The notes below the pieces were generated by a model that made no database searches, had not been told where the DNA came from, and was given only the letters and a program-made list of their open reading frames with translations. Positions 6,947 through 32,312 of a stretch of 64,000 bases of DNA are shown piece by piece. A program made the translations under genes and the position numbers. Within the stretch, counting starts at the first letter, position 1; the number at the start of each line of letters is the position of its first letter. Source of the DNA: Anaerolineales bacterium (GTDB lineage: Bacteria > Chloroflexota > Anaerolineae > Anaerolineales > UBA6663); NCBI GenBank assembly GCA_020845955.1, contig JADLEU010000364.1, positions 11,958 to 75,957 on the forward strand. The letters are read 5' to 3'.

Positions 6947-6995
6947 ATCAGGATTGGCGGCCAGGGTGTCTGAGCCGCCGGTGTTTGTGGCTGTC

Positions 6996-9338
6996 ATGCA
7001 ACCGACTCCCTCGCTGCTCGATTGGCTTCGATTTAAGCTGGGGCGCCCACGCGTCCAGCGCGCCTTCCGCTTCGGGTTGGCCGGGTTGGCCCTGCTGTTG
7101 GGCCTGGCGCAATTGCTGACTTCCGGCGGCCAGGCCGTGGGGGCCTTCTTTTTCCTGGGCGCCGGTATTGGCCTGGGCTTCTGGGGGCTATCGGTGCGGC
7201 CCGCCCGCGGACCGGAGTTCGATTTGCCCGAACTGGGCCTGGGCGCGCGGCCGGCGCCGGCCGCGGCCATCGACCTGACCACGAGCGCGGAGAGCGCCGC
7301 GGCCAGTCGAGCCCGGCGGCGGCAGATCCTGGCGAGCCTGTGGCTGCCTTCGGCGCTGCTGCTGGCCGCCTGGGGCCAGGGGCTGCTGATCAACGGTCCC
7401 GAACTCGCGCGGCCGGGCGCGGCGCTGCTGGCGCTGGGCGCCCTTGTATTTGCCAGCACTCTATTTCTCGACCGGTTGCTCGGTGCGCCGCGCGCCCTGG
7501 CCGTGCCCCAGGAGAGGCCGCTGACCTTTCGCTGGTGGCTGCTGGCGGTGGGCGTGGTGGGCGGGGTGTATGCCTTCCTGGCCGCCGGAGGCAATCAGTT
7601 TCGCCTGGGCGGGGTCATCGCCTGGATCATCAGCGTGGCAGCCTGGCTGGGCGCGGTGTGGGAATGGCCAATGCCGGCAGCCGAGATCTGGAAGCGAGTC
7701 CAGAGGCGCGCGGCCGCGGTGATGCAGCCCGATGGCCTGCAACTGCGCCTGTCGTGGCTGGCCATGGCCTTCCTGGCTGTCTTGGCCGTGGGGGCGTATT
7801 TCCGATTCGCTCAATTAGCGTCCATCCCGCCCGAGATGACGTCGGACCACGTCGAGAAACTGTTTGACGTCAACGACCTGCTCGGCGGACAGCGCCGGGT
7901 GTTTTTTGAGCGCAACACCGGCCGCGAGCCGCTGCAGTTCTATTTCGCCGCGCTGGTCATCCGCTGGCTGGGAACCGGCCTGACCATGCTGACCCTGAAG
8001 ATCACCAGCGCGGTGGCCGGTTTCCTGATGCTGCCTTTCCTATTTTGGCTGGGCCGCGAACTGGAAGACGACCTGCTAGGGCTGCTGGCGATGCTGCTGG
8101 CCGGCGTGGGCTTCTGGGCGACGGCCATCAGCCGGGTGGGGCTGCGCTTCCCGCTGACGCCGCTGTTCGTGGCGCCGATGCTGCTGTTCTTCTTGCGCGG
8201 CGCGCGGCGCGGCGGCCGGAACGACTTTCTGCTGTCCGGCCTGTTTCTGGGCCTGGGCCTATATGGGTACAGCACCATCCGGATGGCGCCGGTGCTGATC
8301 ATGGCCGCGGCCGTCTGGCTGTTGATGTGGCCGCCGGCCGGGATCACCCGCCGGGCGCTGGTGGGCAACACGGTCTTGCTGTTCGCCACGGCCTTCGTCG
8401 TGTTTGTGCCGCTGTACCGCTATGCCACCGAGCCAGACAACCTGTTCTGGTATCGGTCGTTCTCGCGCCTGAGCGGCGCCGAACAAGCGATCAATGGCTC
8501 GCCGCTGCGGATCTTTCTGAGCAACAACTGGAACGCGCTGCGCATGTTCAACTACACGGGCGACGACGTTTGGGTCAACACGCTGCCCGGCAAGCCGGTC
8601 CTCGACTTCATCACGGGTGCCTTGTTTGTCCTGGGCGCCGTGTTTCTGCTGGCGCGGCTGATCTGGCGCCGCGACCGGATCGCGGGCTTGCTGCTGCTCG
8701 CGATTCCAATCCTGCTGCTGCCGTCGACGCTCAGCGTGGCCTTCCCGGAGGAGAACCCGTCGGTCGTGCGCGGGGGCGGCGCTATCCCGGTCGTATTTCT
8801 GATCGCGGCCTATCCGCTCTGGCTGCTCTGGCAGCACGAACGCAGGCTGTGGCCTTCGGCGCGGGGGCGCTGGCTGGCGGCCGGCGGGCTGGGACTGCTG
8901 CTCCTGATGGTGACACTGGCCAACCGGGAAATGTACTTTCGGCGCTACCCGGCCCAGTACATTGGCTCGGCGCAGAATGCTTCAGAGATCGGCCGGGCCG
9001 TTCGGGATTTCGCGGAGTCGATCGGCAGCTACGACCGGGCCTGGATTTGCCTGCACCCACACTGGGCTGACACACGCGCTGTTGGGTTGTATGCCGGGCG
9101 GGCCGGCTGGGAGCAGGTGCTGCCGGCCGAGGAGTTGACCAGCCTTAGCGGCGACCCGCGACCGCTGCTGCTGGTCATCAATCCGCGCAGCGATGCCTGT
9201 CTGGCGGCGGCCCGCAGCGCTTTTCCAACCGGCACGCTGTCGCTGTTCCAATCACAGCGCGGTACGGACAAGGATTTCCTGCTGTTCTTCGTGCCCGGCA
9301 CGCAGGATCTGGATGAGGGCACTCTGCCCTATGAATAG
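6996..9338 (+). CDS. GT-C fold (ArnT/PMT, GT39-like) integral membrane glycosyltransferase; start uncertain (6954-6996)
   Basis: More than 12 TM segments; IPPEMTSDHVEK loop, FERNTGREPL, SRVGLRFP, GLYGYSTIR; C-terminal extracytoplasmic domain. Confidence 0.8.
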   Translation: MQPTPSLLDWLRFKLGRPRVQRAFRFGLAGLALLLGLAQLLTSGGQAVGAFFFLGAGIGLGFWGLSVRPARGPEFDLPELGLGARPAPAAAIDLTTSAESAAASRARRRQILASLWLPSALLLAAWGQGLLINGPELARPGAALLALGALVFASTLFLDRLLGAPRALAVPQERPLTFRWWLLAVGVVGGVYAFLAAGGNQFRLGGVIAWIISVAAWLGAVWEWPMPAAEIWKRVQRRAAAVMQPDGLQLRLSWLAMAFLAVLAVGAYFRFAQLASIPPEMTSDHVEKLFDVNDLLGGQRRVFFERNTGREPLQFYFAALVIRWLGTGLTMLTLKITSAVAGFLMLPFLFWLGRELEDDLLGLLAMLLAGVGFWATAISRVGLRFPLTPLFVAPMLLFFLRGARRGGRNDFLLSGLFLGLGLYGYSTIRMAPVLIMAAAVWLLMWPPAGITRRALVGNTVLLFATAFVVFVPLYRYATEPDNLFWYRSFSRLSGAEQAINGSPLRIFLSNNWNALRMFNYTGDDVWVNTLPGKPVLDFITGALFVLGAVFLLARLIWRRDRIAGLLLLAIPILLLPSTLSVAFPEENPSVVRGGGAIPVVFLIAAYPLWLLWQHERRLWPSARGRWLAAGGLGLLLLMVTLANREMYFRRYPAQYIGSAQNASEIGRAVRDFAESIGSYDRAWICLHPHWADTRAVGLYAGRAGWEQVLPAEELTSLSGDPRPLLLVINPRSDACLAAARSAFPTGTLSLFQSQRGTDKDFLLFFVPGTQDLDEGTLPYE

Positions 9339-9376
9339 GCGGCACTCATCTCCTGTTGTCGTGCGCGTCTCTGTCC

Positions 9377-12300
9377 ATGACCGGATCTGATCCCACGCTC
9401 GGCGAACAAGCCGACAACCTGGCAGGCAACGGCGCCGACACGGGCGCGGCGATTGGGCCGCGCGCCGTTGTCTCGCCGCTGCCAGCTGGCAGCGGGGCCG
9501 AAGCCGCTGCCCCGCCGCTTCCGGCCGAGCCCGCCTCGGAACCGGCCGCCCGGCGGCCACTTGGGATCAAGCGCTCACGGCTCTTGGGCCTGGCGTTCGA
9601 CGCCGTCCTGATCCTGCTGATCGGCGCCGGCGTCGTCTTCCGCTTCAGTTGGGTCAACTGGAATGAAGACGCCGATCTGCACCCTGACGAATACGGGCTG
9701 ACGGGCACGCTGACGCAGCTAGCCATTCCCGCTACCCTGGGTGAGTACTTTAATACCCGCATTTCGCCGCTGAGTCCTTACCAGAAGTACGACGTGGACG
9801 GCACGCCGCTGCCGCCGAGCGCGGAGCATCGCATGCCCGACAACCGCATGCGCTGGGGCCAATGGCCACTGACGATCATCCGCTGGATGGCCGAGGCGAC
9901 TGGCAACACCGGCTACGGTGAGCTGCGCCTGATGGGCCGGCGCCTATCGGCCCTGGCCGATACGCTGGCGCTCGGCGTGATCTTCCTGATCGGTTGGCGG
10001 CTGCACAGCCGCCGCGTGGGCCTGATGGCGGCGGCACTCAGCGCGCTGTCGGTGATGCAGATCCAGCAGGCGCACTTCATGACGGCCGACAACTTCGGCA
10101 CGCTGTTCACCGCCCTGGCGATGTATGCGGCGGTTCGGGTGGCAACCGGGCCAGGGCCGGCCGCGGCGACAGACGATCGACGACCCTCGACGGACCCGGG
10201 CACGGCGCGGCCGGCGGCCGGCCGCCCGCCGGCGCTGGTCTGGTATGGGCTCTTCGGCCTGTTCTTTGGCCTGGCGCTGGCGTCGCGCATCAACCTGGCG
10301 CCGCTGGCGGCCGAAATCGTGGTTGCCGCGGTGATTGCCTATGCCGTCGATTGGCAGCGCGGCGCGCGTGACCGCGGCGGGCTGCTGAGTGAGGCGGCCC
10401 TGCGGCTGGGGTTGGCCGGCCTGGTGGCCGTGTTCACGTTCCGCGTGGCCCAACCCATGAGCTTTCGGGCCGAGACCGGTGACACGACCCTGCTGACCCT
10501 GAATCCCAATCCCGAATGGCTGGCGAGCATGGCGGTGGCTCAGGCCGAGTCCAGCGGGGAGGGTGGCGGCCCGCCTGGGGAGCAGTGGACGGACCGGCCG
10601 GCTCTAGTGTTTCCCTTCGTCAACATGGTGGTCTGGGGCATGGGCTTGCCGCTGGGGCTGATGGCCTGGGCGGGGCTGCTGTGGGCGGCCTGGCGCAGCT
10701 TCCAGCCCGCCGACGAGGTATCCTGGAAACTGCACGCTCTCCCGCTGACCTGGGCTGGCGGCTATTTCCTGTTCATGGGCACGCGCTGGGTCAAATCCAT
10801 TCGCTATTTCCTGCCCATCTATCCCTTCATGGCCCTGTTGGCCGCCTGGGCCATCGTGGCGCTGTGGAAGCTCGGCCGCGCTGATCACGCGGCGCGGCAA
10901 GCGGCGAGGAGCCAAGGGGATCGGGGGCCACAAGGGCGGGCCGCCGAGGGGGCCGCCTTTGACCAGCGCACGAGTCCCTCGCGCCGCCCCAGCCCCTGGT
11001 ATCGGCGGGCCGCTGTCCTGTTGGGCGCGCTCGTCCTCGGCGGAACCCTCGTCTGGGCCTGGGGCTTCACCAGCATCTACCGCAACACCAACACGCGGGT
11101 CACGGCAACGCGCTGGGTGTTTCAAAACGTCCCGGCGCCGTTGAACCTCCAGATCCAGACGATGGACGGCCTGCGCTCCGAGCCGCTCTCCGTGCCAGAC
11201 GGGCTGACCGTTGGCGCTGAAACGCCTTACCGGCTGCAATTTTCCGCTCCGGTGACCGGCACGCTCACGGGCATTTCGGCCGCCTACGCCAGCACGCTCT
11301 TTGGCCCTGGCGCCACCGCCAGCCTGCAGGTCGTGCTGGCGGGCGACCCGGAAGGCCAACAGCCGCTGGCGGCGGCCGAGCTTGTGGCTGCGCGGCCGGG
11401 CAGCGACCCGCGCGGCGCGCCGGCCGCGGCCGCTCTGGGCCCGGCGACGCTGGTGAACGGGCAGACCTATTACCTGCTCCTGCGGGCCACGACCGGCGCC
11501 GCGGTGCAGTTTCAGTCGACCGTCCTTGCTCACGAGGAGTGGGATGAAGCCCTGCCCATTCGCATGGATGGGCGCGATCCCTTTGGGGGGATGTACCGCG
11601 GCCTGTCGATGCTGGTGCGAGGCGTCGACGATGAGAACAAACGGCAGATGTTCATCAGCAATCTGGCGCAGGCCGACCTCGTCATCCTGCCCAGCCAGCG
11701 CGGCTTGTGGAGCGCCTCGCGGCTGCCCAACCGCTATCCGCTGACTCTGGAGTATTACCGCGCGCTGTTCGACGGCCGCCTGGGCTTCGAGCTCGCCGCG
11801 CAATTCCAGTCGCCCATCCGGCTCGGCCCGCTGCAGATCTCCTCCGAAGCCGGCACCTGGGCTTGGGGCCACGCCCCGCCCAACCCGCCGCCGGCCTGGT
11901 ACCCCTTCAACGACAACCCCCTGGCAGCCGAGGAGGCCTTCAGCGTCTACGACCACGCGCCTGTCTGGATCTTCAAGAAGCGCGCCGATTTCAGCCTGGC
12001 TCGGGTGGAGGCGGTGCTCAACGCGGTCGACCTCAGCACCGTGGTCAACCAGGGGCCGCGGGAGGCCACCCGGACACCCACGCTCTTCCGGCTGCCGCCC
12101 GACCGCCTGGCCGAGCTGCGCGCGGGCGGCACGTGGAGCGCGATGTTCGATTTCGACGGGCTGCTCAACCGCCACGAGTGGCTGGGCGTCCTGGTCTGGT
12201 ACCTGGCCGTGCTTCTGATGGGCTGGGCGGCCTTCCCGCTGGCCTTTGTCGCCTTCTCGGGCTTGCCCGACCGCGGCTATCCGTTGGCCAAAACGTTCGC

Positions 12301-28879: not shown

Positions 28880-31192
28880 TTACTCGCCTTCCGGCGCGGT
28901 CGGGGAGACCAGCCGGGCGCCCAGGGCCGAATAACGATTGGGGCCGCGGTTAGTAGCCAGCGCCACTTCGACGGCGCGTCGCGAGCCAACCAGGACGCAC
29001 AGCCGCCGAGCGCGCGTCACGGCCGTGTACAGCAGTTGGCGATAGAGCATGATGGCGTGCTCGGTCAGCAGCGGAATGACGACGGCTGGATATTCGGAAC
29101 CCTGCGCCTTGTGAATACTGACGGCGTAGGCATGCGCCAGGTCTTCCGTTTCCAGCCAGTCGTAGGCAACGATTCGCCCGTCGCAGTCGAGGCGCAACGC
29201 CTGGTCGTTTTCGTCGATCTCGATCACGTAGCCGATCTCGCCGTTCGAGACCTCGCGCTCGTAATCATTGCGCGTGATCATGACCTTGTCACCCACGCGG
29301 AAGGTGCAGCGCGGCAGGACGCGCTCCGCCTTGTGCCGGGTGGGTGGATTGAGCACAGCCTGCAAGCGGGCGTTGAGCTTGTCGATCCCGGCCCGGCCCT
29401 TGTACATCGGCGCGAGCACCTGCACATCGCGCAGCGGGTCGGATAGGCCCAGGTTATTCCCGAACTGCTCCGGAATGCGCTGGCAGGCAATGTCGACGAC
29501 CAGGTCGGCCGCCTCCAGGGCGTTCTTGGCGCTGAACACGTAGAAGTCGCAGTCGCGCTGCGGCGTGAGCGGCCTCAGGCCCTGGTTGATGCGGTGCGCA
29601 TTGGTGACGATCAGGCTGCTCTGCGCCTGGCGGAAGATGCGCGTCAGCCGGGTCACGGCCGCCAGGCCCGAGGCAATCACGTCCCGTAGCACCATGCCAG
29701 GGCCAACCGCCGGCAATTGGTCCACATCGCCGACCAAGACCAGGTGCGTGCCAGGCTGCAGCGCAGCCAACAGCTGGCGCGCCAGGACCAGATCCAACAT
29801 GCTGGCCTCATCGACCACAACCACGTCGGCCTGGATGACGTCGCTGGAAAACTCATCGCCGCTGTACTTCAGCAGGCGGTGAATGGTCCAGGCCGGGTGG
29901 CCGGTGGCTTCTGCCATGCGCCGGGCGGCCCGGCCGGTCGGGGCGACTAGCGCGACCCGGAAACGATACAACTCGAGCAGGGCCACCAGCGACCGCAGGC
30001 AGATCGTCTTGCCGGTGCCCGGCCCGCCTGTGATCACGCTCAGGCGGTGGTCGACAGCCCGCCGGATGGCCAGGCGCTGCTCGGCCGACAGGTCTGACTG
30101 CCCAGCCATCGACGCGGCCCAATGGATCTGCGCCTCGGTCAGCTCCGCGCGCAGGGCCGCGAGCGCCGAGTTGGGATGGTGTGCCAGCGCCCGCAGGCGG
30201 ACCGCTGCCTCGGCCTCGGCCCGGTGCAGCGGGGCCAGATACACTGGGTTGTTCTCCAACCCCAGCCCTGTCTCGATGATCAACTCTTCGCCGCTAGCGG
30301 CCAGGGTCTCCACCATCTCGTCCAGCGGTGCGCTCGGGACGTCCAGCAGTTGGGCAGCAGCCTCGACCAGCATTTCACGCGGCATGTAGCTGTGCCCCTG
30401 CTCGGCAAAGGTTTCCAGGGCGTGCCGCAGCCCGGCGGCGAGCCGGTCTGGCGCCTCCCGCGAAACCCCCAATTGCGCGGCGATGCGATCGGCGCTCCGG
30501 AAGCCGACGCCGCCAACTTTCACCAGCCGATAAGGCTCAGTCTGAACGACGTGACCGGCCGATGGCCCCAGTGCTTTGTGGATCTTGAGGGCCAGGTTTG
30601 GCGGCAGGCCCTGGCCCTGGAGAAAGACCATCAGACTGCGCACTTCCGCCTGCTCGGCCCAAACCTTGCGGATGAGGTCGACGCGGCTGAGGCCGATGCC
30701 TGGGACGTCCAGCAGGCGCTGGGGAGCCTGGGCGATGACGTCGAAGGTCTGCTCGCCAAACGTTTCGAGGATGGCCGCCGCCAGGCTGGGGCCGATGCCG
30801 CGCATCAGGCCGCTGGCCAGGTAGGCGTGCATCCCGCTCAGGGTCGTCGGCAGCTGCACTTTCCAGCGGTCGGCTCGGAACTGGCGGCCATGCAAGGGGT
30901 GCTCGGTCCATTCGCCCGCTACCCAGAGCTGCTGCCCGACCTCAACGGAGGCGAAGTCGCCCACGACCGTGATGATCTTGGGCAGCAAGTCGTCTTCGAT
31001 AAAGCTGGTTTGCCGAGGGCGGGTGTCGGCCGAGCCATTGCCCGACTCCGCGTCGGCTCGGCTGGCGGCGCTGATCAGCGGTGCGGTGATCTTGAGGCGA
31101 GGCTCACGATCGGGCGCCAGCCGCAAGATCGTATACGTCGTCTCTGGATTGCGGAACACCAGCCGCGTTACGCTGCCGGCAACCTGTTCCAT
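28880..31192 (-). CDS. recD2: ATP-dependent RecD-like DNA helicase (RecD2, SF1B)
   Basis: N-terminal OB and HhH regions; GGPGTGKT, VDEASM, GDVDQLPAVGPG, YAVSIHKAQGSE, LYTAVTRAR. Confidence 0.95.
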   Translation of the reverse strand: MEQVAGSVTRLVFRNPETTYTILRLAPDREPRLKITAPLISAASRADAESGNGSADTRPRQTSFIEDDLLPKIITVVGDFASVEVGQQLWVAGEWTEHPLHGRQFRADRWKVQLPTTLSGMHAYLASGLMRGIGPSLAAAILETFGEQTFDVIAQAPQRLLDVPGIGLSRVDLIRKVWAEQAEVRSLMVFLQGQGLPPNLALKIHKALGPSAGHVVQTEPYRLVKVGGVGFRSADRIAAQLGVSREAPDRLAAGLRHALETFAEQGHSYMPREMLVEAAAQLLDVPSAPLDEMVETLAASGEELIIETGLGLENNPVYLAPLHRAEAEAAVRLRALAHHPNSALAALRAELTEAQIHWAASMAGQSDLSAEQRLAIRRAVDHRLSVITGGPGTGKTICLRSLVALLELYRFRVALVAPTGRAARRMAEATGHPAWTIHRLLKYSGDEFSSDVIQADVVVVDEASMLDLVLARQLLAALQPGTHLVLVGDVDQLPAVGPGMVLRDVIASGLAAVTRLTRIFRQAQSSLIVTNAHRINQGLRPLTPQRDCDFYVFSAKNALEAADLVVDIACQRIPEQFGNNLGLSDPLRDVQVLAPMYKGRAGIDKLNARLQAVLNPPTRHKAERVLPRCTFRVGDKVMITRNDYEREVSNGEIGYVIEIDENDQALRLDCDGRIVAYDWLETEDLAHAYAVSIHKAQGSEYPAVVIPLLTEHAIMLYRQLLYTAVTRARRLCVLVGSRRAVEVALATNRGPNRYSALGARLVSPTAPEGE

Positions 31193-31313
31193 ACAGCCCA
31201 CACAATCTAGGGATCAAGTCCGTGCACAAGCGGCGCCAGAGGCCGGCGCCTGGCCAGGGAGCGCGCTTCGGGGAGGTTGATGGCTTTCGGCCGCGGGCCG
31301 GCCTCGGCGGACC

Positions 31314-32147
31314 TTAGCCGAGCTCGGCGGCAGCGGGCTCAACGTCGTGGTCGTCCAGGGTTTCCTCGGCGCCTGGGCGATCCCAGGCGGCGCCCCACTC
31401 GGTGGCCTCGTGGTAAGCCTGCTGGAACTCCTGCAGCCGATCGCGGCCGACGTAGACTTTACTCAGGTACTCCTCCGAGACGACGCTCGGCATCTCAAGC
31501 ACTGGGGGCGTGATGATGGACTCCTGCCCCTTCTGGCCGACCTTGACGTGCGGTCCCGGCACGAGGCGCATGTAGAACGCAAACCGAGGAAAGCGGTTCT
31601 GGCTGTTGGGCGCGACGCGGGCGGCCGCGGCGCGCTCTTTCTCGCGGGCGAGGCGGTAGGCCGCCTCTTGCGCCTTCTGCGAGAACTCGCGCAGCAGGCG
31701 CTCGAACTCCTGCGAGGCTTTGCCTTTGAAGGTGACGACGATGGGGAAGTCGAAGCCGTGCACGCCGCACAGCGCCTGCACGTGGCCGCGCATGCCTGAA
31801 TCCGCCACGTAGCCAGGGCGCGGGTAGTAGGTGGTGACGCCGTTGTAGACGACAAACCAGCGGAACCGGGTGCGGATGACGGCCAGGCGCGGCTTGTGCG
31901 CGGCCAGCACCGCTTCCGACTTGCCGCTGGAAAACCCTACGGTGGTGCGGCTCCAGCCGGGGGCCGGGGCAATGCTGTCGTCCAGATATTTAGCCGGCAG
32001 GATTACGCCGCCCGTGTGGGCGACCCCGCCCGCCGCGGCGAGCTTAGGATCGCCGTGGAGCCACTGAGCAACCGGGTACAAAGGACCGGTGGCCTCAATG
32101 GTGGTTTGGTCAACAATATCAATATCGTCGATGAAGTTGGGTGACAT
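31314..32147 (-). CDS. Uncharacterised 277-aa soluble protein with acidic C-terminal tail, under a LexA box
   Basis: Clean ORF; GGAGG 7 nt before ATG 32147; consensus promoter and SOS box upstream. Confidence 0.85.
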   Translation of the reverse strand: MSPNFIDDIDIVDQTTIEATGPLYPVAQWLHGDPKLAAAGGVAHTGGVILPAKYLDDSIAPAPGWSRTTVGFSSGKSEAVLAAHKPRLAVIRTRFRWFVVYNGVTTYYPRPGYVADSGMRGHVQALCGVHGFDFPIVVTFKGKASQEFERLLREFSQKAQEAAYRLAREKERAAAARVAPNSQNRFPRFAFYMRLVPGPHVKVGQKGQESIITPPVLEMPSVVSEEYLSKVYVGRDRLQEFQQAYHEATEWGAAWDRPGAEETLDDHDVEPAAAELG

Positions 32148-32262
32148 GCTTGCCTCCAAGTCAGCGGTTCAAGAATGAACAGATGAGCCAGGGGTTTCTG
32201 GGGCGCCGCGCTTCGGGGTTCGCGCCGAGGCGCGCAGCGGTACCTTGGAGTGACCAGGTATC

Positions 32263-32276
32263 AGAACATCTGTTCG
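32263..32276 (-). promoter_or_regulatory. LexA operator (Cheo/SOS box) CGAAC-AGAT-GTTCT
   Basis: Fits the GAAC-N4-GTTC core and CGAAC-RNRY-GTTCY pattern; lies 7 nt downstream of the -10, over the expected transcription start. Confidence 0.85.
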
Positions 32277-32283
32277 CAACCTG

Positions 32284-32312
32284 TTTATACAACAAGATTG
32301 GCCGCGATGCAA
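32284..32312 (-). promoter_or_regulatory. Sigma70 promoter TTGCAT-N17-TATAAA
   Basis: -35 at 32312-32307, -10 at 32289-32284, 17-bp spacer. Confidence 0.75.

Follow-up and report, generated by a model that had tools for sequence, protein, structure and literature searches.

A predicted LexA-controlled gene of a phage-related protein family upstream of recD2 in an Anaerolineales lineage

Results

The 64,000-nucleotide (nt) stretch of contig JADLEU010000364.1 from an Anaerolineales bacterium (assembly GCA_020845955.1), called the window below and meaning the whole stretch of DNA that was analysed, carries on its minus strand a gene for a 277-amino-acid (aa) protein, P0001, preceded by a promoter with a LexA-type operator and followed by the helicase gene recD2. 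An earlier reading of this region (the original prediction) had described the promoter TTGCAT-N17-TATAAA followed after 7 nt by CGAACAGATGTTCT, a partial second site GAACAGATGAGC at 32177-32188 (plus-strand reading), a strong ribosome-binding site, the 277-aa open reading frame (ORF) upstream of recD2, several peptide segments within it and the acidic tail EETLDDHDVEPAAAELG. All of these are present in the sequence, and the promoter and operator are read on the minus strand. The features on which the following analyses rest are:

32307..32312, minus strand: -35 hexamer TTGCAT, from sequence reading, inside the conserved block AAATTGCCTCTTGCAT
32284..32289, minus strand: -10 hexamer TATAAA, from sequence reading, 17 nt from the -35 hexamer
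32263..32276: LexA-type operator (GAAC-N4-GTTC palindrome), 7 nt past the -10 hexamer and over the predicted transcription start
32267..32275, minus strand: 5' arm GAACAGAUG of a putative leader helix, overlapping the operator; from the RNAalifold consensus and the minimum free energy (MFE) fold of the window leader
32244..32250, minus strand: possible anti-Shine-Dalgarno (anti-SD) element CUCCAAG, able to pair with CUUGGAG at the ribosome site; tentative
32177..32185, minus strand: 3' arm CAUCUGUUC of the putative leader helix, co-varying with the N4 of the box and part of the partial site 32177-32188
32153..32160, minus strand: ribosome-binding region CUUGGAGG, with GGAGG (32157-32153) 5 nt before the ATG
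31314..32147, minus strand: coding sequence of P0001, 277 aa, from the ORF list; ATG at 32147, end at 31314, G+C at third codon positions (GC3) 0.83
31317..31379, minus strand: acidic disordered C-terminal tail of P0001, residues 257-277, net charge -6; predicted local distance difference test score (pLDDT) <50 for residues 263-277
31202..31313, minus strand: spacer of 112 nt between the gene and recD2, GC-rich, in which a long hairpin can form
28880..31201, minus strand: recD2, a superfamily 1B (SF1B) 5'-3' helicase gene with OB_YrrC, HHH_RecD2, AAA_30/AAA_19, SH3_13 and UvrD_C_2 domains

A sigma-70 promoter scan made no call at the window promoter, because TATAAA lacks the terminal T that the scan requires.

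In order to judge the operator, we compared its occurrence with chance. The window contains a single GAAC-N4-GTTC, where 0.41 are expected, with at least one occurrence in 36 of 100 shuffles; across the genome (6.06 Mb, 67% G+C) there are 59, where about 57 are expected. The single box in the window is by itself not significant, and outside support is therefore needed; what makes it significant is that orthologues conserve it and that lexA and imuB carry the motif too. Across orthologous loci drawn from species genomes, metagenomes and relatives, the box was found in all 15 distinct promoters, exactly in 11 and with one mismatch in four, located 6-9 nt past the -10 hexamer and 102-158 nt ahead of the start codon. 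An alignment of seven of the orthologous promoters showed an invariant TTGC core, GTATA and TGGAG together with largely kept -35 flanks, and the box, the -35 block and GTATAA form a conserved island in diverging flanks. Most orthologous promoters (seen in L012, L013, L016, L033, L035-L037, L075 and L078) have in addition a half-conserved AGAACAAAT(T/G)TGC element within the -35/-10 spacer, which the window promoter has lost.

Elsewhere in the same genome, lexA on contig C48 (5377-6045) has GGAACGTACGTTCGG between TTGACT and TATACA hexamers (site C48:5334). An imuB-like Y-family gene together with a second, dnaE2-like Pol III alpha gene (C316:222-4812) is preceded by a perfect GGAACAACTGTTCC box (C316:4801), 16 nt upstream; a divergent TetR gene lies on the other side. 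The imuB-dnaE2 pair is a classic LexA-controlled mutagenesis cassette. A one-mismatch box was also found at recA on C351, directly past TTGACA-N17-TATACT. The genome holds two full-length recA genes (C100:35999-36784 and C351:1400-2182), which could be a true duplicate or the result of bin contamination (4.4%); the LexA-like site past the -10 hexamer is confined to the C351 copy, which bears a long N-terminal extension. The palindrome, its promoter-overlapping position and its presence at lexA and imuB-dnaE2 correspond to the SOS regulon of the Firmicute/Chloroflexi type (CGAAC-N4-GTTCG), of which Dehalococcoides LexA is an example; the LexA of Bacillus subtilis also reads this palindrome. The window gene is not among the described SOS genes.

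With the box kept in 15 of 15 promoters and the same motif at lexA and imuB-dnaE2, LexA control of the window gene is predicted with good confidence, and the box named in the original prediction is well backed. Of the 59 perfect boxes in the genome, 23 fall in the approximately 14% that is non-coding by a simple GC3-based gene call, and the ORFs nearest several perfect AGAAC-N4-GTTCT sites are not SOS genes (phosphoglycerate-mutase-like, mraZ, an oxidoreductase and others). Promoters of the paralogues, including the copy in the same genome, have no box, and among Nitrospirota-type homologues it was found in one of about 40 loci (L056, AGAACTAATGTTCT at -130). The recD2 genes of five relatives that lack the gene have no exact box, with a one-mismatch site at -84 in L099; to our knowledge, recD2 is not a member of the LexA regulon in model bacteria. 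The site AGAACAACAGTTCT is present in identical form on C284 (7015) and C370 (2247), within AT-rich flanks that resemble each other, in one case 71 nt upstream of a small excisionase-like helix-turn-helix gene; these two sites may belong to a repeated mobile element under LexA-like control.

The partial site downstream of the operator had originally been taken for a second LexA site, which was dropped in favour of a leader helix on the basis of co-variation and RNAalifold. The first nine bases of the box, GAACAGATG (32275-32267), have their exact reverse complement in the element CATCTGTTC (32177-32185), and across the 15 orthologues the box spacer and the downstream element change together, AGAT occurring with ATCT and, in another clade, AAGC with GCTT. 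The spacer of the box is not read by LexA. Because this spacer nevertheless co-varies with a site 90 nt away, the 3' arm of a conserved RNA helix with compensatory changes is a better reading of the downstream element than an operator. RNAalifold on the orthologous leaders returned the 9-bp helix as the only consensus structure; 97% of the cells of the orthologue alignment are paired, three pairs are changed on both sides, and pairing falls to 33-50% when the partner element is shifted along. The helix is also part of the MFE fold of the window leader, whose overall stability is unremarkable (z = -1.3). Since the compensatory changes stem from one or two clades, the evidence for a conserved helix at the 5' end of the transcript, built from the box sequence, is suggestive but not proof. 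A second, weaker pairing, between CUCCAAG (32250-32244) and CUUGGAG (32160-32154), is kept in 86% of cells with two pairs changed on both sides and is absent from the MFE fold; this anti-SD helix is tentative, and the two pairings would be mutually exclusive or pseudoknot-forming.

P0001 has a short acidic N-terminus, a basic aromatic-rich beta/alpha core and a disordered acidic tail. Its sole Pfam match is a sub-threshold one to DUF5895 (PF19247; E 0.019, 15.9 bits against a cut-off of 25); the DUF5895 model matches just two of 44 diverse family members at E<=0.01, and some close homologues are flagged PF19247. No annotated relative was found in PHROGs, in NCBIfam or by tblastn against isolated phages and plasmids, and a search of PDB sequences with the family profile came back empty. 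A word-indexed search returned 158 close homologues, each either without a name or called 'hypothetical'; those with a name come from Anaerolineales metagenome-assembled genomes. An exhaustive search yielded 246 representatives of 50%-identity clusters at E<=1e-3, reaching approximately 27% identity.

The AlphaFold2 model of P0001, built with 44 homologues (pLDDT 82, predicted template modelling score 0.79), comprises a core rich in beta structure, a helix of 30 residues, a small helical bundle towards the C-terminus and the disordered tail. Foldseek gave no match for it in the PDB (best E 0.1, template modelling score (TM) <= 0.2), and in BFVD 23 viral predicted structures at E<1e-3, all uncharacterised. 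One of the BFVD matches (E 4e-7, TM 0.54/0.46) is A0A068QKW1, a DUF5895 protein from Armadillidium vulgare iridescent virus. The DUF5895 guess of the original prediction thus stands at the level of fold and stays below threshold in sequence. DUF5895 is a family of cyanobacteria, cyanophages and invertebrate iridescent viruses, and in a cyanophage its gene lies with those of the beta clamp and DnaB (PMC10343443). A second model, made for a viral relative (core pLDDT >90), had among its PDB matches a single chain with meaningful probability, 9teh_I, which is phiC31 gp3 (E 0.02, probability 0.84, TM 0.29/0.41); we regard this weak resemblance as a lead rather than as membership. Membership of P0001 in the PF00436 family of single-stranded DNA (ssDNA)-binding proteins (SSBs) was rejected, there being no Pfam match and no protein with an oligonucleotide/oligosaccharide-binding (OB) fold at E<0.1 in the PDB. 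An OB-fold SSB similar to gp2.5 or gp32, as first proposed, was not recovered by Pfam, by Foldseek against the PDB or by hhalign against gp2.5. The core (residues 23-256) has an isoelectric point (pI) of 9.6, with core values of 9.6-10.5, and 28 aromatic residues; residues 60-220 have a net charge of +13. P0001 also has a conserved R-x-R-x-R-W strand. Such a composition fits nucleic-acid binding.

Among 131 full-length family representatives, 41 end in [DE]..[ILVMF]PF and 74 in Phe, and such endings occur in every deep clade. A tip of the DDDIPF type is a hallmark of bacterial SSB. The tail WDRPGAEETLDDHE shows high conservation among the orthologues, many of which end in EEIPF (some in TEEIPF), EAGPF or PEQF, and a sub-clade that includes the window copy (AAAELG) ends in ELG or ELS. 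Among the viral homologues, the one at L103:5878-6909 ends in IPF. P0001 resembles bacterial SSB in its disordered acidic tail, in the D/E-x-I/V/L/M-P-F tip of part of its family and in the location of its gene beside that of a helicase of a kind that binds SSB in model organisms (RecD2-SsbA, PMC8989531); it differs in lacking PF00436 and an OB fold, in ending AELG and in having paralogues that co-occur with a true SSB. One clade (P0163, P0171, P0194, P0202, P0205, P0215, P0218, P0224, P0252 and P0255, and also covering L104, L108 and L109) ends in a conserved [AEM]-G-L instead of IPF. This C-terminus may be an alternative docking peptide, to which AELG of the window copy may be related. In some homologues of 320-350 aa (P0063, P0070, P0076, P0086, P0095, P0099 and P0119), a helical module of about 60 residues (…LTEAQALAALKAHKI…YDPERDT.IVR…) is inserted between the acidic linker and the IPF/F tip.

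We examined which genes accompany the family. The ORF downstream of the window gene is RecD2 by its full domain architecture in a Pfam search, and in Anaerolineales recD2 comes next after the gene in every sufficiently long orthologous locus bar two, at spacers of 110-200 nt. In IMG/VR viral contigs with downstream sequence, a DinG/XPD-type helicase lies on the same strand in 13 of 16, within 0.5 kb in 12, and two more have a Prim-Pol/D5 primase-helicase at about 0.55 kb (L105) or 3.4 kb (L102) downstream. Integrases, a serine recombinase and methylases also occur near the gene in these contigs, and the phage-like contig L008 has a G39P-like helicase-loader match two genes away. In L108 the DinG-like helicase gene (6990-10691) is split by an intein that contains a homing endonuclease domain of the LAGLIDADG type. 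Viral contigs were also scanned with three further profiles, the Anaerolineales/Nitrospirota one (A2) and those of two distant clades (A5 and A8), and these scans found nothing.

The same genome has a second copy, P0111 (C122:13653-14405, minus strand; L002/L086), which is 58% identical and box-less. Downstream of the gene in this paralogue group come a canonical SSB, RadC, DUF6908 and a large helicase/methylase; a Tad/T2SSE secretion ATPase is encoded upstream, and these surroundings look like the ssDNA-entry module of a conjugative element. The gene is patchily distributed: within the class it is present in 4 of 201 genomes and within the family in 6 of 22 others, and none of the 18 genomes searched from other families of the order yielded it. 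Relatives in IMG/VR viral contigs, viral matches in BFVD and this patchiness bear out the phage origin suggested originally. The neighbourhood in the window is a housekeeping one (glmS, an FAD oxidoreductase, vanZ, scpA and cytochrome oxidase), with no integrase or other phage gene among the surroundings of the gene.

Discussion

Helicases of three superfamilies recurring beside members of the family, an SSB-type tail, a basic core, a replication-module position and the predicted SOS control of the chromosomal copy together suggest, with about even chances, that the window gene encodes an SOS-induced, phage-derived ssDNA-binding or helicase-cofactor protein. It would be a LexA-repressed gene of an Anaerolineales sub-lineage and a domesticated member of a phage and mobile-element family distantly related to DUF5895, whose product would act on ssDNA at replication or repair intermediates. 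The basic aromatic-rich core would bind DNA, and the flexible acidic tail, with its D-x-I/V/L-P-F tip in much of the family, would dock partner enzymes, notably a 5'-3' DNA helicase, which would be RecD2 here and a DinG-like helicase or primase-helicase in the phage relatives. Cleavage of LexA upon DNA damage would free the promoter, since the predicted transcription start lies within the operator. The operator sequence would then stand at the start of the mRNA and pair with a conserved element about 90 nt further on, giving a leader helix at the 5' end.

Pairs of acidic-tailed ssDNA-binding proteins and helicases are known. In Bacillus subtilis, RecD2 binds SsbA, which targets it to forks (PMC8989531), and in phage T4 the acidic peptide at the C-terminus of gp32 binds Dda, a helicase of SF1B, in a complex that has been solved (PMC11551737). 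P0001 shares with gp32-Dda and T7 gp2.5-gp4 a basic core, an acidic tail and a gene adjoining that of a 5'-3' helicase, and RecD2 and Dda are both SF1B helicases. It differs in having no detectable gp2.5 likeness in sequence or fold and no zinc site, and gp32 is absent from the fold matches of both models; the gp32 tail-Dda structure (PDB 8S9I) appeared in the P0001 fold search through its Dda chain only. A third comparison is with phiC31 gp3 and TG1 gp25 (PF18897), a phage SSB that moonlights as the directionality factor of a serine integrase and that is similar in size and in its early, replication-module position. The TG1 homologue of gp3 is a functional SSB that binds ssDNA and not double-stranded DNA in vitro and has a gp32-like predicted fold (PMC11795197). 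For P0001 the profile comparison with gp3 was negative, the invariant His/Cys zinc motif of gp3 (H115 H116 C117 C135 C137) has no counterpart, and the window model retrieves no gp3.

Several observations weigh against an ssDNA-binding helicase partner. Neither an OB fold nor any other known DNA-binding fold was found for P0001 by Foldseek against the PDB at E<0.1, membership in the T7 gp2.5 family was rejected (hhalign probability 0.1%, absent from the PDB matches of both models), and so was membership in the gp3 family (hhalign probability 0.2-0.3%, zinc motif lacking). The window copy itself has no terminal Phe, and an SSB-type tip would point to the SSB partner network rather than to coating of ssDNA. 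The canonical SSB beside the paralogues argues against a simple SSB substitute, and the Nitrospirota homologues are solitary chromosomal genes with no conserved DNA-metabolism neighbour. As to recD2, its adjacency inside one bacterial family may partly reflect shared ancestry, and one lineage (L013 / G207) retains gene and box without recD2, which the flanking genes suggest was lost. Terminator-like hairpins with T runs lie between gene and recD2 in several orthologues (spacers of 170-200 nt), making co-transcription uncertain and weakening a strict operon reading; a consensus terminator scan called none in the window spacer. Of the partnership with RecD2 first envisaged, an association with helicases is supported.

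P0001 might instead be a helicase loader or adaptor, which would not coat DNA and would bind the neighbouring helicase, use its SSB-like tail to compete with SSB or bridge to SSB-coated DNA, and load the helicase onto ssDNA. T4 gp59 and SPP1 G39P are loaders that serve their helicases in this way. The position just upstream of helicases from three superfamilies (about 0.5 kb; 2.2 kb in one contig), the G39P-like loader near the gene in L008, the SSB already there beside the paralogue and a tail tip of the docking-peptide kind would all suit such a role. We nevertheless consider it unlikely, as the strongly basic aromatic-rich core suits direct nucleic-acid binding, the Nitrospirota copies stand without a helicase, and neither Pfam nor Foldseek against the PDB revealed a likeness to known loaders.

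A single-strand annealing protein, that is a RecA-independent recombinase of new fold that is induced by damage and anneals ssDNA exposed by RecD2, was part of the original prediction and appears improbable, given that no exonuclease partner was seen in any context examined and no fold or profile likeness to Rad52, RecT, Erf or gp2.5 was detected. It would agree with the frequent location of phage annealases beside an SSB gene, as seen for the paralogues, and with T7 gp2.5, whose record annotation unites binding, annealing and an acidic Phe-ending tail.

The gene could also be a mobile-element remnant with a regulatory or counter-defence role, such as a recombination directionality factor (RDF) of a serine integrase or a modulator of SOS or SSB partners, and its LexA control would then follow prophage-style induction logic. 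RDFs are borrowed replication proteins (PMC11795197), and the weak fold resemblance of the viral relative to the phiC31 RDF gp3, a serine recombinase 1.2 kb upstream in L108 and the patchy distribution of the gene point in this direction. This is quite improbable for a window locus among housekeeping genes (glmS, scpA, vanZ, recD2) without an integrase, with synteny stable across five genera at 68-93% identity, and most viral contigs have tyrosine integrases or none. Least probable is that the box is a chance palindrome or simply reflects, in the DNA, the leader helix of the RNA: genome-wide the motif shows no enrichment, its single window occurrence lies within chance and pairing with 32177-32185 constrains its sequence, but the GAAC/GTTC half-sites are kept where the spacer changes, the GTTC half lies outside the helix, the position over the predicted transcription start is fixed, and the same motif stands at lexA and imuB-dnaE2.

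The reading of P0001 as an SOS-induced ssDNA-binding or helicase-cofactor protein can be extended, tentatively and with some doubt, to its wider family. The DUF5895-related superfamily may be an unrecognised structural class of ssDNA-binding 5'-3' helicase cofactors, ranging from phages and conjugative elements to invertebrate iridescent viruses, of which the Anaerolineales copy would be a RecD2 partner within the LexA regulon whose mRNA leader stem is built from the operator. Neither LexA boxes and SOS regulons nor SSB-like proteins with acidic tails are new as such. What appears to be new, judged from sequence comparison, is an unannotated family with no solved relative that is tied to helicases across phages and bacteria, its apparent recruitment into the SOS regulon of an Anaerolineales lineage, and the putative operator-derived leader helix. 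We found no description of the family, of its SOS recruitment or of the helix in the literature; one paper mentions DUF5895, in passing only.

If the proposed role is correct, it would provide the first function for DUF5895 and its relatives, a family of unknown fold that is widespread in viruses and cells, and add a new SSB-like helicase partner to gp32-Dda, gp2.5-gp4 and SSB-RecD2. The conserved promoter and operator offer a clean, testable LexA site in an uncultivated lineage, and in the operator-derived leader helix one sequence would serve as both DNA operator and RNA structural element. For the little-studied Chloroflexota, the window gene would then be a phage replication protein taken into a bacterial SOS regulon.

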